The notes beneath the pieces were generated by a model, which did not search any database, was not told the DNA's origin, and saw only the letters and a program-made list of their open reading frames with translations. Positions 840 to 31,826 of a stretch of 32,629 bases of DNA are shown here, piece by piece. The DNA is from Patescibacteria group bacterium (lineage in GTDB: Bacteria; Patescibacteriota; Patescibacteriia; JAACEG01), in assembly GCA_034660735.1 (NCBI GenBank), contig JAYEJQ010000071.1, positions 1 through 32,629 of the forward strand. The letters are read 5' to 3'. Position 1 is the stretch's first letter; every line of letters begins with the position of its first letter. Made by a program: the position numbers and the translations under genes.

Positions 840-1844
840 ATGCAACCGAATAAAAAATTTATCACAATTAAAGATACCGAAAATAAAGTTAAAGCTCTTT
901 TGAACGAGCTTGTTTTACAGCCAAGGATAAATGCAATTAAATGGTCTCAAATAACAAAACAAACACCAAATATTAAAATCGGATACCCAGGACAACACCT
1001 TGCATCTTTAATTACAGGAATGGAAGGCGAAAGGACGGGAGCAAGAGGAAATGATTTAATAGACGGATCAGAGGTAAAATCATGTTCAAGAATAGATCAG
1101 CTTGATTTGTGCAAAGACTGTAAAACTCCAGTGGCAAGGCTTGAAAATGAATGTTCAAATTGTGGCTCAAATAATATTGATCGAAAAAAAGATTCAAAAT
1201 GGCTCTTTTCTGTTAGAACTAAAGACGAATTGAATGTTTTATTACATGAGGTAAAAAGAGTATTTTTAATCATTGGCGATTATCCAAATTTCGAAAATAA
1301 TGATTTTGAAACTTTAAGATTCCAAGCGTTTGAAATTTGGCCAGAAAATCCAAAAAATAAAAAATTTTCTGAAATAATGACCAATTACTATAATAAAATA
1401 TATTTGGCTCACAAAAAGAAAAATCCAAACAAAACTCCAGCTCCAAAAAACTTTTGGCCATACCAATATCAATTTTATATTTGTAATCCAATTCTTGTTT
1501 TTTCCTGTATAGTAGTGAAATCAAATTCTAATCCAAAAATAAATATTGAATATTATTTAAAACCTGTTGCTGACCGTTCAAAGAAAAAATCTATTTTAAT
1601 GCCAGCGAATATATTAAATGAAAAAGAAATTGATTTACTTTTTAGAAAAGCGCCAAAAGAAGAGATTTTGAAAATGATTAAAAAAGAGCATAAAATTAAA
1701 AAAATAAAGAAACTCTCTTTAAAGGAAAAACAAGAAATGTTTATTGGTATTGATGAAAATTTAAGAAATTATTTGCCTCTCAGAGATACTGATAAAATTT
1801 CCATTGCTAAAAGCAAATATTCAAGAAGAAAAAATTCAAAATAG
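840..1844 (+). CDS. putative type II restriction endonuclease (PD-(D/E)xK-like core with a CxxC...CxxC zinc-ribbon insert)
   Basis: The call rests on position, directly after a C protein and convergent with a methyltransferase. GARGNDLIDGSEVKS fits a D...ExK nuclease motif (D72, E78, K80). CKDC...CSNC (C91, C94, C105, C108) follows. I recognise no specific family with certainty. Confidence 0.45.
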   Translation: MQPNKKFITIKDTENKVKALLNELVLQPRINAIKWSQITKQTPNIKIGYPGQHLASLITGMEGERTGARGNDLIDGSEVKSCSRIDQLDLCKDCKTPVARLENECSNCGSNNIDRKKDSKWLFSVRTKDELNVLLHEVKRVFLIIGDYPNFENNDFETLRFQAFEIWPENPKNKKFSEIMTNYYNKIYLAHKKKNPNKTPAPKNFWPYQYQFYICNPILVFSCIVVKSNSNPKINIEYYLKPVADRSKKKSILMPANILNEKEIDLLFRKAPKEEILKMIKKEHKIKKIKKLSLKEKQEMFIGIDENLRNYLPLRDTDKISIAKSKYSRRKNSK

Positions 1845-3392
1845 TTTAGGAGTTCTTTTTAAGTTTTTTATTCTTTCTTTCGCTATTTTTGTGTATTTTT
1901 TATCAATATCAATACCGATATAATTTCTTTTAAGTTCAGCACAAGCTAAGGCGGTCGAACCTGCACCAACAAAAGGATCCAAAACAGTCATTCCTTCATT
2001 GCTACTTGCTTTTACTATTCTTTCAATAAGACGCACTGGTTTTTGTGTTGGGTGATATCGTTTTTCTTTGTAAAAATCAATATCATTCCAGACATCAGTA
2101 AATCCCATTTGGGCGTTAAAGATAAAATTTACTTCTGAATACGGTTTTTTAAATTTTAATATTTTTTCAAGCTTTTCCCATTGTTCTTTTGTTGGAATTT
2201 GAGCCAATATATTTTTACCAGTATACAAAGACCACAAACCGCCTCCGTTACTTTTAACTTCCATCGCTTCATTTATTTCTTTTGCGGTTAAGTCAGTTTC
2301 TTTTTGTCTATCAAGAAGAAACTTTTTTATTTCTGGTTGGTTATTGTAAGCAAAAAATAGAATACTTTCTGTCACATTGGGAAACATCTTATAGTTTTTT
2401 GTTGCTCTTCCGCTAACAGATCTCATTCCTTTGTTGATTATTATTTGCTGTCTTAAGGAAAAACCTTCTTTCTCAATTTCGGGGAGTAAATATGCTAAAG
2501 TTTTAAAGTACCCGAATAAATAAAAAGAACCTGTTTTTTTTGTAATTCGTACAAGCTCTTTGAGCCATTGTTTGCACCAAATAATATAATCGTTCTCGGT
2601 TCGCCATTTATAATCCCATTTTTCATTTATTACTTTCCAGTATGGAGGATCAGCAACAATCAAATCAATTGAATGATCTGGAATTTTTTTTAATTCTTCA
2701 ACTACATCTCCGCAAATAATTTTATTTAATGGTAATTTAGAATATTTTTTTACTTGCTTTTCTTCCTTTTTTTTTATGATTTCTGTATCTAAAATTTTAT
2801 TTTTTATCACATCAACAACAAGACCTTGAATGATAATTTCTTGCTCGTCTTTTTTTATAATGATTGGTTCATATTCTTTATTAGCTGGTTGCAGGCGTAT
2901 TTGATTTTTTTCTTTGTAGAATGTTTTTAATGTTGCCTCGTAATTATCAATCAAGGCAACTACTTTCTGTCCATTTTCAGCGACCTGCTGTTCTTTTACC
3001 AAAATAATATCACCATCATTGATATTTTCATCAATCATGCTTTTTCCTGCCACTCGCAAAGCGTAAAAATTTCCGCTTCTCATTATTTTTGTTTTTGGTA
3101 TAGCAATTGTTTCTTTTTCTTGAATAGCTTCAATTGGTTGTCCCGCAGCAATTGTTCCCATTAAAGGAATTTTTACCATTTGCTGGCTTTCATAAACGGA
3201 TATTGATCTTGGGCTGTTTTCTTCCTTATTCAAAAATCCTTCTTCTTGCAGTTTCTTTATATGAAAATGGGCGGTTGAAACAGAGGCAACTTTGAGTTTT
3301 TTGCGTATCTCTTCCAAAGAGGGGGCATACCCTTTTTTCTTGTGATATGAGGATATAAAGTCTAAAACTTGTTTTTGTTTTTTTGTTAGCAT
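1836..3392 (-). CDS. fusion protein: full-length LexA (winged HTH plus S24 autopeptidase) joined to a beta-class N6A/N4C DNA methyltransferase
   Basis: Residues 1-205 align end to end with LexA: MLTKKQKQVLDFI..., cleavage motif IAAG (A83-G84, nt 3141-3146), GKSM (S118, nt 3039-3041), TLK (K156, nt 2925-2927), GLVVDVIKN. Residues 225-518 carry DPPY (248-251, nt 2640-2651) upstream of HPTQKP and LDPFVGAGSTALA. That motif IV-before-motif I order is typical of the N6_N4_Mtase family. The ORF is one uninterrupted frame. Confidence 0.85.
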   Translation of the reverse strand: MLTKKQKQVLDFISSYHKKKGYAPSLEEIRKKLKVASVSTAHFHIKKLQEEGFLNKEENSPRSISVYESQQMVKIPLMGTIAAGQPIEAIQEKETIAIPKTKIMRSGNFYALRVAGKSMIDENINDGDIILVKEQQVAENGQKVVALIDNYEATLKTFYKEKNQIRLQPANKEYEPIIIKKDEQEIIIQGLVVDVIKNKILDTEIIKKKEEKQVKKYSKLPLNKIICGDVVEELKKIPDHSIDLIVADPPYWKVINEKWDYKWRTENDYIIWCKQWLKELVRITKKTGSFYLFGYFKTLAYLLPEIEKEGFSLRQQIIINKGMRSVSGRATKNYKMFPNVTESILFFAYNNQPEIKKFLLDRQKETDLTAKEINEAMEVKSNGGGLWSLYTGKNILAQIPTKEQWEKLEKILKFKKPYSEVNFIFNAQMGFTDVWNDIDFYKEKRYHPTQKPVRLIERIVKASSNEGMTVLDPFVGAGSTALACAELKRNYIGIDIDKKYTKIAKERIKNLKRTPKLF

Positions 3393-3398
3393 AAATAT

Positions 3399-3459
3399 TT
3401 GACTTTATTTTTTATTAAATCTATACTTATAGTATAATAGAAAGAAAATAGAAAGTCAA
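3399..3459. promoter_or_regulatory. mirror-symmetric pair of overlapping face-to-face promoters with a central 15-bp palindrome (candidate operator)
   Basis: Plus strand: TTGACT (3399-3404), 17 nt, TATACT (3422-3427). Minus strand: TTGACT (complement of 3454-3459), 17 nt, TATACT (complement of 3431-3436). The two -10 hexamers together form TATACT-TAT-AGTATA (3422-3436), centred at 3429. Confidence 0.6.
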
Positions 3460-3505
3460 AAGTTAATTTATTCACAAATTTTATTTTTAATTTAATCTAA
3501 AAATT

Positions 3506-3742
3506 ATGCAAAAACGAACAGCAACAAAATCACAAGTTAAAAAAGAGCGGGGCTTAAAAAAGGTTACAAAGGTTATTAAGCAAAAAGGTCATCCGTCAGG
3601 CAAACTGCCCAAAGGTAAAATTTTACACCATGTTAATTCAGTTGCCACTGGCGGAAAAACAACAAAGAAAAACACTCGTATCGTTACAAAGTCAAGGCAT
3701 AAACAAATACACAAAAACCGCAACAAACGAGGAAAAATTTAA
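3506..3742 (+). CDS. small, very basic protein with a minimal HNH-like motif
   Basis: This 78-aa protein has a Lys/Arg-rich N-terminus. LHHVNSVATGGKTTKKNTRIVTKSRHKQIH fits the HH...GG...N...H..IH beta-beta-alpha-Me (HNH) pattern. It is the first gene of a tight three-gene cluster. Confidence 0.4.
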   Translation: MQKRTATKSQVKKERGLKKVTKVIKQKGHPSGKLPKGKILHHVNSVATGGKTTKKNTRIVTKSRHKQIHKNRNKRGKI

Positions 3743-3761
3743 TATTAAAAACAAATAAATT

Positions 3762-4163
3762 ATGGAAAACAAGCGTAAACATCTCGAATTTATTCAGGCA
3801 ATCATCAGTCGAATGGCTGGCAATTTGTTTTTCTTGAAAGGATGGACTATCACATTAATTGTGGCACTTTTCGCATTTTTTGTAAAAGACGCGAATACCG
3901 ATTTTATTTTTGTCATTTATTTCCCAGTCATTATTTTTTGGATATTGGATGGGTATTTTCTTTCACAAGAACGATTATTCAGGGCGTTATATAATCATGT
4001 GCGAAAACTAGATGAAAAGGAAATTAACTTTTCAATGAATACAAATAAATATAATGAGGACAAAAGGAATGGTTGGCTACACTCAATGTTTTCGAGTACG
4101 CTTCTATTTTTTTATTTGCCACTTGTCGGCGTTATGTTATTAGTTACATATTTAATAAATTAA
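3762..4163 (+). CDS. small integral membrane protein (about 3 TM helices), function unknown; candidate effector partner of the TIR protein
   Basis: Hydrophobic spans are LFFLKGWTITLIVALFAFFV, FIFVIYFPVIIFWILDGYFL and a C-terminal TLLFFYLPLVGVMLLVTYLI. The gene starts 19 nt after the previous ORF and ends 10 nt before the next. Confidence 0.6.
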   Translation: MENKRKHLEFIQAIISRMAGNLFFLKGWTITLIVALFAFFVKDANTDFIFVIYFPVIIFWILDGYFLSQERLFRALYNHVRKLDEKEINFSMNTNKYNEDKRNGWLHSMFSSTLLFFYLPLVGVMLLVTYLIN

Positions 4164-4173
4164 ATTCAAAGTT

Positions 4174-4611
4174 ATGAGAAAAGTATTTTTTAGCTTCAAA
4201 TACAAGGATGTATCAAGAACAATGATTGTTAGGAATAGTTGGGTTGCTCAAGGAAAAGATGCGGCGGGTTTTATTGACTCCGCCGATTTTGAGGACTTGA
4301 AACGACAAGGTGACACAGCAATTAAAAACTGGATAGATAAACAACTCAATGGAACATCAGTTACTGTCGTCTTAGTAGGCGAAAAAACTTGTGATAGCAG
4401 GTGGGTAAAATATGAGATTGAAAAAAGCATTGAAATTGGGAATGGCTTATTAGGAATTGATGTAAGTAAGATAGAGGATTTGCAGGGTAATACTTCTGAA
4501 AGATGTGGCAAAATTCCAAAAGGTTACAATTTTTACCTTTGGAACAACGATGACGGATATCACAAAATGGGCGATTGGATTGAGAAAGCGGCGAAAGATG
4601 CTGGAAGATAA
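4174..4611 (+). CDS. ThsB-like TIR domain protein (DUF1863 / TIR-like family)
   Basis: KVFFSFKYKDV...VRNSWV...AAGFIDSADFEDLKR...TSVTVVLVGEKTCDSRWVKYEIEKSIEIGNGLLGI matches the ThsB/TIR-like signature as I know it. The match includes the RWV.YEI.KS segment with the conserved Glu (E81, nt 4414-4416). Confidence 0.8.
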   Translation: MRKVFFSFKYKDVSRTMIVRNSWVAQGKDAAGFIDSADFEDLKRQGDTAIKNWIDKQLNGTSVTVVLVGEKTCDSRWVKYEIEKSIEIGNGLLGIDVSKIEDLQGNTSERCGKIPKGYNFYLWNNDDGYHKMGDWIEKAAKDAGR

Positions 4612-5060: not shown

Positions 5061-5088
5061 TTGACATTTATTTTTATTCTTTTATAAT
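5061..5088 (+). promoter_or_regulatory. sigma70-type promoter of groES-groEL
   Basis: TTGACA (5061-5066), 16 nt, TATAAT (5083-5088), directly upstream of the CIRCE element. Confidence 0.7.
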
Positions 5089-5097
5089 AAAAATAAA

Positions 5098-5124
5098 TTA
5101 GCACTCCTTGAATAGAAGTGCTAA
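5098..5124 (+). promoter_or_regulatory. CIRCE operator (HrcA binding site)
   Basis: TTAGCACTC-N9-AAGTGCTAA differs from the consensus TTAGCACTC-N9-GAGTGCTAA at one position. It sits between the promoter and groES. Confidence 0.85.
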
Positions 5125-5553: not shown

Positions 5554-7272
<1,719 letters not shown>

Positions 7273-7331: not shown

Positions 7332-7537
7332 GGTTTGCTAATAGACTTGTTGTGTAATCAACTATTTAATATTCCCCCCATGACAAGGGGGATTAAGGGT
7401 GTTTTTGAATTACAAAACTTTTCGAAAAAATTTTCGTAATTCAGGATAATATAAAAAAATAAATAAATAAAGTTAGTTTTTTAAAAATTAAGAAAGTATT
7501 TACATAAAATGATTTTTTAGTTATCCACAAAAAACAC

Positions 7538-11214: not shown

Positions 11215-11682
11215 AAAAATTATGTTGAATATTTAGAAAATAACTTTTTATTTTTTACCATAAATATTTTTTCGCATTCATTAAAAAAACAAATTATTAA
11301 TCCTAAAAAAAATTATATTATAGACAATGGAATAGCTAATCAAGTCGCTTATAGATTCTCTAAAGATAAAGGAAAATTCTTGGAAAATTTGGTTTTTTTT
11401 AAATTAAAACGAGAAGATAGAGATGTATATTATTATAAGACAAAAAGCAATAAAGAAGTTGATTTTTTAACAATTAAATCAGGGGGAAAAGAACTAACGC
11501 AAGTGTCGCAAAGCATTAAAAATAAAATAACAAAAGATAGAGAAGTCGGCGGATTAATAGAAGCGCTGCAAGAAACAGGTTTAAAAAAGGGCGTTATTTT
11601 AACCGAAGACGAAGAAGATTTATTAAATATTGAAAAAAAACAAATAATAGTTAAACCTATATATAAATGGTTGCTTCAATAG
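11215..11682 (+). pseudogene. 5'-truncated remnant of an AAA ATPase with a DUF4143 domain; only the C-terminal part survives
   Basis: The frame is open from 11215 and has no plausible start codon. It reads YVEYLENNFLFFTINIFSHSLKKQIINPKKNYIIDNGIANQ...GKFLENLVFFKLKR...EVDFL...TKDREVGGLIEA. This resembles the C-terminal half of DUF4143 ATPases. No P-loop domain lies upstream, and stop codons occur at 11173, 11206 and 11212. Confidence 0.55.
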
Positions 11683-30210: not shown

Positions 30211-30295
30211 AAAAACATAATAACATTTAAACATAGAAACATAGAAACATTTAAACATTTAAACATAGAAACATTTAAGCATTTAAGCATTTAAC
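30211..30295 (-). repeat. octamer array A1, about 10 units of NNAAACAT, the reverse complement of ATGTTTNN
   Basis: Units in order: AAAAACAT AATAACAT TTAAACAT AGAAACAT AGAAACAT TTAAACAT TTAAACAT AGAAACAT TTAAGCAT TTAAGCAT. A short extra copy lies at 30581-30594. Confidence 0.9.
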
Positions 30296-30603: not shown

Positions 30604-30927
30604 ATGAATGATTTTCAAGAACAATTAAAGAAAAAAATGGATGGATATGCGCATTTGGTTTATAAAATTACTAAAAAATTTCCAAAACATGAAATATATG
30701 GAATCACATCTCAACTAAGAAGATCTGCGTTATCGGTTATTTTAAATTATATTGAAGGTTTTGCCAGACAAAGAAAAAATATACAAATATATTTTTGGGA
30801 AATTTCTTATGGGTCACTAAAAGAATCAAAATATCTTTTACATTTTGCATTGACAGAAAAATATTTTGATAAAAAAAATTATAGAAATGCTATAAAATTA
30901 TCCGAAGAAATAGGCGCTATGATTTGA
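30604..30927 (+). CDS. four-helix-bundle protein (23S rRNA intervening-sequence protein / Avd-like family)
   Basis: LVYKITKKFPKHEIYGITSQLRRSALSVILNYIEGFARQRKN...YGSLKESKYLLHFA matches the family signature (FP..E.YGLTSQLRRAA.SI..NIAEG......F......GSL.E). Confidence 0.85.
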   Translation: MNDFQEQLKKKMDGYAHLVYKITKKFPKHEIYGITSQLRRSALSVILNYIEGFARQRKNIQIYFWEISYGSLKESKYLLHFALTEKYFDKKNYRNAIKLSEEIGAMI

Positions 30928-30958
30928 AGTTTATTAAAATCATTAAAAAATCAAAAAA

Positions 30959-31070
30959 ATGTTTAAATGTTTCTATGTTTAAATGTTTCCATGTTTCCAT
31001 GTTTAAATGTTTAAATGTTTAAATGTTTAAATGTTTCTATGTTTCTATGTTTAAATGTTTCTATGTTTTC
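30959..31070 (+). repeat. octamer array A2, 14 tandem ATGTTTNN units that run into the prepilin peptidase start
   Basis: Units start every 8 nt from 30959: AA CT AA CC CC AA AA AA AA CT CT AA CT TC, given as the last two bases of each unit. Every unit carries an ATG. Confidence 0.92.
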
Positions 31071-31826
31071 ATCCTCGGAGCAATAATCGGCAGTTTTTTA
31101 AATGTTGTCATTTTTCGTCTGCGCGCGAAAAAATCATTTTTAAAAGGTCGCTCATATTGCCCTAAGTGTAAAAAGAAAATAGCATGGTATGACAATATTC
31201 CGATTTTGAGTTTTTTAATTCTGCGCGGAAAATGCCGAAACTGCAAAACGAAAATTTCATTTCAATATCCATTAGTAGAATTATCAACAGGTGTTCTATT
31301 TGTTATAACATTTTTTCATAATTACCAATTACCAATTACCAATTACCAATTACCAATTACTGTTTTTCGCGACTGGTTTTTTGTTTCTGTTTTAATAATA
31401 ATTTTTGTTTATGATTTTAAATATTATTTGATTTTAGATAAAATTACTATTCCAGCGATAATCATAGCTTTCGCTTTAAATTTTTCACTCGGATTTTCTT
31501 TGTCAAATATTTTAATTGGTGCTATAATAGGAGGGAATTTTTTTTTAATTCAATTTTTAATTTCCAAAGGCAGGTGGATAGGGGGAGGGGATATTCGCTT
31601 AGGAATCTTGATGGGTGTTATGCTCGGATGGAAAATGGTTATTTTAGCTATTATGATTGCTTATATTGTCGGAGCGATTTTTAGTATCATTTTATTGGCA
31701 TTTAAAAAAAAAGGATTAAAAAGCCAAATTCCATTAGGAACATTTTTATCAATAGCGACGATGATTGTTATGCTCTATGGAAATGAAATTTTAGAATGGT
31801 ATTTAAAAACTTTAATTGTATATTGA
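31023..31826 (+). CDS. prepilin peptidase (A24 family, PilD-like) with an N-terminal CxxC...CxxC domain
   Basis: GAIIGSFLNVVIFRL, CPKCKKKIAWYDNIPILSFLILRGKCRNCKTKISFQYPLVEL, and later GGGDIRLGILMG containing the second catalytic Asp. The start is ambiguous between 31023 and the in-frame 31047, both inside the repeat array. Confidence 0.88.
   Translation: MFKCFYVSMFKCFYVFILGAIIGSFLNVVIFRLRAKKSFLKGRSYCPKCKKKIAWYDNIPILSFLILRGKCRNCKTKISFQYPLVELSTGVLFVITFFHNYQLPITNYQLPITVFRDWFFVSVLIIIFVYDFKYYLILDKITIPAIIIAFALNFSLGFSLSNILIGAIIGGNFFLIQFLISKGRWIGGGDIRLGILMGVMLGWKMVILAIMIAYIVGAIFSIILLAFKKKGLKSQIPLGTFLSIATMIVMLYGNEILEWYLKTLIVY
31321..31360 (+). repeat. tandem heptamer ATTACCA, about 5.7 copies, inside the prepilin peptidase CDS
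   Basis: ATTACCA occurs five times followed by ATTAC, and is translated as NYQLPITNYQLPIT. Confidence 0.92.

Follow-up and report, generated by a model that had tools for sequence, protein, structure and literature searches.

The window, that is, the whole 32,629-nt stretch of Patescibacteria DNA analysed here, contains an island that lies between tRNA genes and beside groESL and rpoBC in a genome of 31% GC. In this island, a leftward gene for a LexA repressor fused to a DNA methylase is separated by a spacer of 113 bp (3393-3505) from a rightward operon (3506-4611), the membrane and TIR proteins of which correspond to PDC-M50, a candidate system in PADLOC. The methylase gene converges with an R.MamI-like restriction gene (840-1844), ahead of which lies a C-protein gene (624-830), whose product matches PADLOC Control_protein (8.7e-22). 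The annotated features on either side of the spacer are as follows.

541-596, + strand: predicted operator of the C-protein promoter, a palindrome with 17-nt arms (541-557/565-581) plus a third copy (587-596)
1836-3392, - strand: LexA (wHTH + S24 autopeptidase) fused to an N6/N4 DNA methylase, 518 aa (Pfam)
3506-3742, + strand: HNH-like protein, 78 aa (Pfam)
3762-4163, + strand: membrane protein, 133 aa (PADLOC PDC-M50A, 2.6e-52)
4174-4611, + strand: ThsB-like TIR protein, 145 aa (PADLOC ThsB/PDC-M50B)

Repeats occur at several other positions in the window. Directly after the tRNA-Ser gene, nested perfect inverted repeats, GC-rich in this 31% GC genome, occupy 193-409, where an outer repeat (193-217/385-409; 25 nt, 100%) encloses an inner one (267-299/303-335; 33 nt, 100%, 3-nt loop), and these may be an island boundary or scar, or a structured element. 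Arrays of the 8-mer AACATTTA (approximately nine copies) and its reverse complement AAATGTTT (approximately 14 copies) at 30222-30294 and 30957-31068 flank a gene resembling those for 23S rRNA intervening sequence proteins (30604-30927), with the second array entering the start of a prepilin peptidase gene (31023) that itself contains a perfect tandem repeat (AATTACC x5.9, 31320-31360). Another perfect tandem repeat (ATTCTTA x4.6, 5554-5585) is located directly upstream of the groEL start codon, and the interval between rpoB and rpoC holds a 100-aa open reading frame (11380-11682) with a weak DUF4143 match, perhaps what is left of a gene.

The sequence-only reading of this locus had noted a LexA domain encoded next to the spacer, and the gene was found to code for a full LexA, with both the winged helix and the S24 peptidase (Pfam LexA_DNA_bind, 1.2e-14; Peptidase_S24, 8.9e-31), joined to the methylase. 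Residues A83-G84, S118 and K156 align to the AG, S119 and K156 of Escherichia coli LexA and are invariant in 20 homologues; judged from its sequence, the LexA module is complete with its catalytic residues intact. The same architecture returns thousands of protein matches, with at least 516 relatives in species-representative genomes, and the homologues come from Patescibacteria/CPR. Among relatives the 200-aa LexA module is 60-90% identical, while the methylase part has been swapped for unrelated N6/N4 methylases. Our literature search returned no paper on LexA-methylase fusions, and the operator repeat considered below may already be defined in the 2017 work on the SOS response of Patescibacteria. 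Two other interpretations of the gene were rejected. A phage immunity region was discarded, since only two fusion genes were found among 2.9 million viral contigs, and the apparent nearest standalone LexA (L207 P0121, 86% identical) is really a fusion gene with an in-frame stop in its linker; this interrupted gene (L207, 4001-5287) has the DnaA box, operator and mirrored promoter upstream as in the window.

The spacer between the fusion gene and the HNH-like gene holds the following elements, which were identified by reading the sequence and by a consensus scan, with transcription starts predicted from the usual 7-nt distance between the -10 hexamer and the start.

3399-3404, + strand: -35 hexamer TTGACT of the rightward promoter, toward the HNH-like/TM/TIR operon
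3422-3427, + strand: -10 hexamer TATACT of the rightward promoter, predicted start at approximately 3434
3422-3436, both strands: palindrome TATACT-TAT-AGTATA, comprising the two facing -10 hexamers and a central TAT (3428-3430)
3431-3436, - strand: -10 hexamer TATACT of the leftward LexA-methylase promoter, predicted start at approximately 3424
3437-3454, - strand: predicted LexA operator TTTCTAT-N4-TTTCTAT, with units at 3448-3454 and 3437-3443 and a period of 11
3454-3459, - strand: -35 hexamer TTGACT of the LexA-methylase promoter, reading AGTCAA on the + strand
3468-3476, - strand: DnaA-box-like TGTGAATAA, one mismatch to TGTGGATAA, 8 nt upstream of the leftward -35

Two near-consensus promoters arranged as an exact mirror and pointing towards and through each other had been proposed for this spacer, and much of that description stands. 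TTGACT-17-TATACT can be read on each strand (3399-3427 on the + strand, 3459-3431 on the - strand) and is the sole such pair in the window, the abutting -10 hexamers do form the 15-bp palindrome (3422-3436), and the -35 hexamers do form an outer inverted repeat, the arms of which extend even to 8 bp (TTGACTTT/AAAGTCAA). The mirror is exact for the hexamers and for the spacer lengths, but not for the full 37-nt promoter arms, which are approximately 70% complementary. Similarly, the promoters pass through each other in the sense that their polymerase sites overlap and would be mutually exclusive, but the RNAs predicted from approximately 3434 (+) and 3424 (-) diverge without overlap, so that the overlap would be confined to the polymerase binding sites. 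Both promoters score 10/12 with 17-nt spacers, a facing pair of promoters scoring at least 10/12 occurs once in the 32.6 kb, and such a pair arises in 0.24-0.7% of shuffles (200,000 shuffles of the AT-rich intergenic region); the exact palindrome TATACTNNNAGTATA also has a single occurrence in the window. The scan found no other promoter of at least 9/12 on the + strand within 3460-3505. Sigma-70-type signals are credible in this organism because a 12/12 promoter (TTGACA-16-TATAAT, 5061-5088) precedes groES, and an inverted repeat that follows it (5098-5124, TTAGCACTT-N9-GAGTGCTAA), scored as a 'terminator', we take to be the CIRCE/HrcA operator before groES. An Rfam search of 3200-3700 returned nothing near threshold, leaving a leader RNA element unsupported, and 3393-3505 contains no MamI-type sites (GATN4ATC; the six sites of the window lie elsewhere) through which a methylation-sensing switch could act. 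The spacer also contains an 18/20 direct repeat (TTTATTTTTTATTAAATCTA at 3404-3423 and TTTATTTTTAATTTAATCTA at 3480-3499), one copy of which constitutes the spacer of the rightward promoter and the other just precedes the start codon of the HNH-like gene; this could be chance in AT-rich DNA.

Upstream regions were extracted from 80 related Patescibacteria loci, and most counts are given out of 81. The window geometry, in which the reverse -10 lies exactly +9 from the forward -10, was found in 15 of the 69 loci with a forward promoter (22%), compared with 4/664 (0.6%) of shuffled controls, and six further loci have reverse promoters at offsets of +6 to +8. A reverse promoter at offset -2, the -10s overlapping in ATTATAAT, was present in 17-21 loci versus 6.5% of shuffles, and one at +1 in 13 loci, for which a lower threshold was used; reverse -10s at +1 and -2 are also fairly frequent in shuffles. 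Lineages with the TTCGGT-type operator described below also fall in the +9 class, which indicates that this geometry arose before the operator variants did. From the side of the fusion gene, the rightward -35 reads GTCAA, and this motif lies 3-25 nt before the ATG in 38/81 loci. We considered GTCAA as a ribosome-binding signal and rejected this, since none of the 23 window genes has a Shine-Dalgarno sequence and GTCAA lies 16-18 nt from the reverse -10. All 23 gene starts in the window have A/T-rich leaders with no Shine-Dalgarno upstream, and the lexA-type gene appears to be leaderless in many related loci (TATAAT 6 nt before the ATG). The upstream neighbour of the lexA-type gene is divergent in 63/73 loci. 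On these comparisons the two-way promoter is a conserved feature of many Patescibacteria, and this conservation is a stronger argument for the reality of the promoter pair than the shuffle statistics.

A second sequence element in the spacer, a direct repeat with an 11-bp period built on TTC, is present in 77/81 loci. It is found between the two promoter hexamers or shortly after the start, and in most cases takes up the -35/-10 spacer exactly. The copy in the window is TTTCTATTTTCTTTCTAT (3437-3454, - strand), the sole exact occurrence there of TTTCTAT-N4-TTTCTAT; it fills the -35/-10 spacer of the methylase promoter and thereby spans -13 to -30 of the leftward promoter and approximately +4 to +21 of the rightward one. 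A relaxed form of the motif has 76 occurrences in 722 kb, 66 of which fall within 120 nt upstream of a lexA-type gene. The repeat varies with the recognition helix of the LexA module (residue X in ST[A/I/V]H-X-H): TTC-TA pairs with F/Y (41 loci), TTC-GG with Q/E/D (16 loci) and TTC-GA mostly with H. Such covariation is the behaviour expected of a cognate operator, an association that is inflated by shared ancestry. The same repeat is carried by two standalone lexA genes of Patescibacteria (L077 and L208). In 70 loci the operator has the forward orientation, four of these having copies on both arms, and in seven it has the reverse orientation only; its occurrence on either arm is expected if one site controls both directions. 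The TTC units have been lost from the rightward promoter's own spacer, so control of this promoter would depend on the single operator downstream of its start. When metagenome contigs were scanned with DTTTCTATTTWYTTTCTAT, a T-rich pattern that omitted the C preceding most real sites, the hits were mostly in unrelated AT-rich DNA, and further lexA-type promoters were recovered only at L087, L100, L156 and L163. No recA, uvrA or similar SOS genes are located within the window or the locus flanks. Direct-repeat LexA boxes with an 11-bp period are known elsewhere, such as GTTC-N7-GTTC in the Alphaproteobacteria (PMC8565304).

These observations suggest that the direct repeat, not the palindrome, is the likely DNA-damage switch element and LexA operator of the locus. 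The sequence-only reading had proposed TATACT-TAT-AGTATA as the LexA box and had used its half-sites to bring the promoter of the C and restriction genes into the same regulon. As a perfect 6+6 palindrome that is unique in the window and adjoins a LexA-domain gene it is a natural candidate, and palindromic LexA boxes are frequent in other phyla, but its hexamers vary across loci in the way that TAnnnT -10 elements do (TATAAT, TATAGT, TACAAT; complements AGTATA, ATTATA, ATTGTA) and do not track the recognition helix, so that it probably represents two facing -10 elements and probably not a repressor box. Within two mismatches it is found in only 18/47 loci that share the F-type helix of the window, loci with other helices (Q/E/H-type) have it at a similar frequency, and it was absent from leaderless-class loci and standalone lexA promoters when upstream regions were compared; the direct repeat passes every test that the palindrome fails. 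What remains of the proposal that one repressor site silences both promoters is a single LexA-type operator that appears to be placed to gate both, with the direct repeat in the place of the palindrome. The half-sites cited in the C-protein promoter region are present at 552-559 and 584-589, but with 12 copies of TATACT/AGTATA in the window they are no more than chance would provide: the former is part of the left arm of the C-palindrome, the latter is probably the -10 of the C-protein promoter, and no LexA direct repeat was found there in a scan of the window. We therefore regard the palindromic LexA box as highly improbable. No greater weight can be given to the palindrome as a C-box bound by the neighbouring C-protein. 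At its convergent M promoter, C.Esp1396I reportedly acts as a repressor through a GACTTATAGTC-type site, the core ACT-TAT-AGT resembles C-boxes of the PvuII/Esp1396I type, and the window has both the same gene order, with C-R convergent with M, and a bona fide C-protein. Against this, the predicted operator of this C-protein, with arms CATTTGCTAACTATAGT and ACTAAAATTAGCAAGTG and the third copy ACTAAAATTA (587-596), has motifs (TTGCTAAC...TTAGCAA, TTGCTAAC.../ACTAAAATTAGCAA; inner ends AGT-N7-ACT) that differ from the 3422-3436 palindrome in both sequence and spacing, and the -10/-10 arrangement is kept with other methylases and in the MamI-type loci L001-L004, which retain the LexA promoter design with no C-protein homologue. 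The layout of the C-operator appears typical of paired high-affinity and low-affinity C-boxes. Thus, of the proposal that one damage-responsive switch governs the restriction module and the TIR operon, the part concerning the methylase and the TIR operon is plausible, but the restriction gene, whose C-protein promoter has a palindrome of its own and no LexA repeat, is not visibly wired to LexA.

Beside the operator lies a further conserved site. An exact DnaA box (TGTGGATAA) occurs at the same place in 51/81 loci, and one with at most one mismatch in 68/81, a few bp upstream of the lexA(-methylase) -35 and 13-16 nt before the direct repeat. Of its 72 occurrences in 722 kb, 52 fall in a lexA(-methylase) promoter, it is also found at standalone lexA genes, and it is invariant while the LexA operator varies. 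To judge from its conservation, the DnaA-box-like site probably adds a replication-linked input to the promoter. Another perfect DnaA box (TTATCCACA, 7521-7529) lies in the groEL-rpoB intergenic region, approximately 250 nt upstream of rpoB.

The genes on the far side of the promoter differ by locus. The TM+TIR pair of the window also adjoins the fusion gene in L002, L023 and L046, and elsewhere the divergent cargo includes GIY-YIG and HNH nucleases, trypsin-like proteases, an ORC/Cdc6-like ATPase, Schlafen/AlbA, a CBASS-type cyclase, HerA, AbiU2, PIF1, UDG and PDC families. This suggests that variable genes, often related to defence, use the promoter as a general point of entry.

Our analysis makes it probable that the 61-bp element is a bidirectional sigma-70-type promoter at which the LexA module of the fusion, bound to the direct repeat, gates both directions. 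RNA polymerase would occupy the element in one orientation at a time, transcribing the LexA-methylase gene from approximately 3424 when facing left and the HNH-like/TM/TIR defence operon from approximately 3434 when facing right. The LexA module of the fusion protein, as a dimer, would bind the direct repeat (3437-3454) and act as an autorepressor. Because the repeat fills the leftward spacer and covers approximately +4 to +21 of the rightward promoter, an occupied operator would shut both, the fusion thereby autoregulating and co-repressing its divergent cargo; for the rightward promoter, we infer co-repression from the position of the repeat alone. As in canonical LexA biology, DNA damage or phage-generated single-stranded DNA would lead RecA to stimulate self-cleavage at Ala83-Gly84, which would separate the DNA-binding domain from the remainder of the protein (S24 and methylase) and clear the operator, so that the methylase and the defence operon would both be induced.

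A reciprocal switch of the kind described for Ecl18kI, although improbable, is the most credible alternative to this co-repression. Here the fusion would block only the leftward promoter, and the reduced competition for polymerase would turn the TIR operon on once enough methylase/LexA had built up, with DNA damage favouring the methylase promoter and lowering the TIR operon. The layout matches that of Ecl18kI (M leftward, other promoter, PM, other gene rightward, with the promoters facing), where binding of the methylase to its operator left the facing promoter unaffected and competition set the balance (PMC2760811, PMC3874152), and the identical hexamers of the two core promoters make competition plausible. 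The operator of the window, however, lies at approximately +4 to +21 of the rightward promoter and within the polymerase footprint, unlike that of Ecl18kI, and for this reason we rate the reciprocal switch below co-repression. Moreover, the seven loci with the operator only on the arm facing away would leave lexA un-autoregulated, and the basal bidirectional promoters tested in E. coli were too weak for competition (PMC12825309). That the rightward promoter might be a functionless by-product of -10 symmetry and AT-richness, with the TIR operon transcribed from elsewhere, seems very unlikely. The inherent symmetry of the -10 does yield many spurious divergent promoters (PMC12825309), and reverse -10s at +1 and -2 are fairly common in shuffles, but the +9 geometry requires an independent -10 together with a correctly spaced TTGAC and far exceeds its shuffled frequency. 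The recurrence of GTCAA within 25 nt of the ATG, the lack of another rightward promoter of at least 9/12 in 3460-3505, and the many loci with a divergent neighbour that needs a promoter in a short spacer also argue against a by-product.

The element as we interpret it, a LexA-gated promoter working in both directions, can be compared with several known systems. Like Ecl18kI and SsoII, the methylase has its own N-terminal DNA-binding domain, the predicted operator is positioned in the M promoter, and two facing promoters, in the same order with respect to the methylase and the other gene, would exclude each other's polymerase. Unlike in the SsoII/Ecl18kI systems, the regulatory module is a full LexA of the self-cleavable type (wHTH + S24) and not a short HTH, the predicted operator is a direct repeat with an 11-bp period that overlaps the early transcribed region of the facing promoter, that promoter drives variable cargo (here the PDC-M50-like TM+TIR pair) in the place of the cognate restriction gene, and the restriction gene, convergent with the methylase, is controlled by a separate C-protein. 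The LexA-methylase system thus resembles Ecl18kI/SsoII in layout and is not a member of that family. Bidirectional promoters have been described in which divergent starts lie approximately 10, 18 or 23 bp apart around or within a shared -10 (Warman, Grainger; PMC12825309), and to which two polymerases cannot bind simultaneously (PMC12825309 and the 2021 work cited there). The -10s of the window (3422-3427 on the + strand, 3431-3436 on the - strand) predict starts approximately 10 bp apart, which places the element in the 10-bp class of these promoters, with the same pseudo-symmetric -10s and predicted polymerase exclusion. In contrast to those promoters, both arms in the window have a near-consensus -35, one gene family keeps the geometry in many species, and a dedicated predicted repressor site lies inside the element. 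As in canonical lexA autoregulation, the predicted operator overlaps the lexA promoter and the Ala-Gly, Ser and Lys residues are intact, and as in the GTTC-N7-GTTC boxes (PMC8565304) the half-sites form a direct repeat around TTC with a period of 11 bp; unlike in canonical lexA, the protein is translationally fused to a DNA methylase, the predicted operator also serves a divergent promoter, and a DnaA box is co-conserved. The core promoter, the direct-repeat operator and the layout each fit known kinds. A further parallel is found in phage defence. In CBASS systems with CapH/CapP, a repressor encoded beside the defence operon is proteolytically inactivated upon DNA damage, raising defence expression. 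Here, by contrast, the repressor would be LexA itself, presumably self-cleaving, fused to a methylase and acting without a separate protease.

For these genomes, one direct consequence concerns annotation, as proteins labelled 'transcriptional repressor LexA' are often LexA-methylase fusions. The locus provides a natural compact bidirectional promoter, predicted to be repressor-gated, and a conserved pairing of DnaA box and LexA box. As reagents it offers the element of 61 bp, an 18-bp operator whose specificity variants can be predicted, and a LexA-methylase predicted to cleave itself. More tentatively, the LexA-methylase promoter may be an SOS-gated defence hotspot, a docking site that places upstream cassettes under the control of DNA damage and phage replication, although we hold this to be somewhat doubtful. 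Its components would be the DnaA box, the LexA direct repeat and the two-way core promoter, with TIR, CBASS-type cyclase, HerA and nucleases among the cargo, and RecA-triggered self-cleavage would both induce the defence genes and free an untethered methylase. If the model of a LexA-gated bidirectional promoter holds, it would join the SOS switch, restriction-modification homeostasis and anti-phage defence islands, which are usually studied apart, in a very large radiation of uncultured bacteria that have tiny genomes and few regulators.
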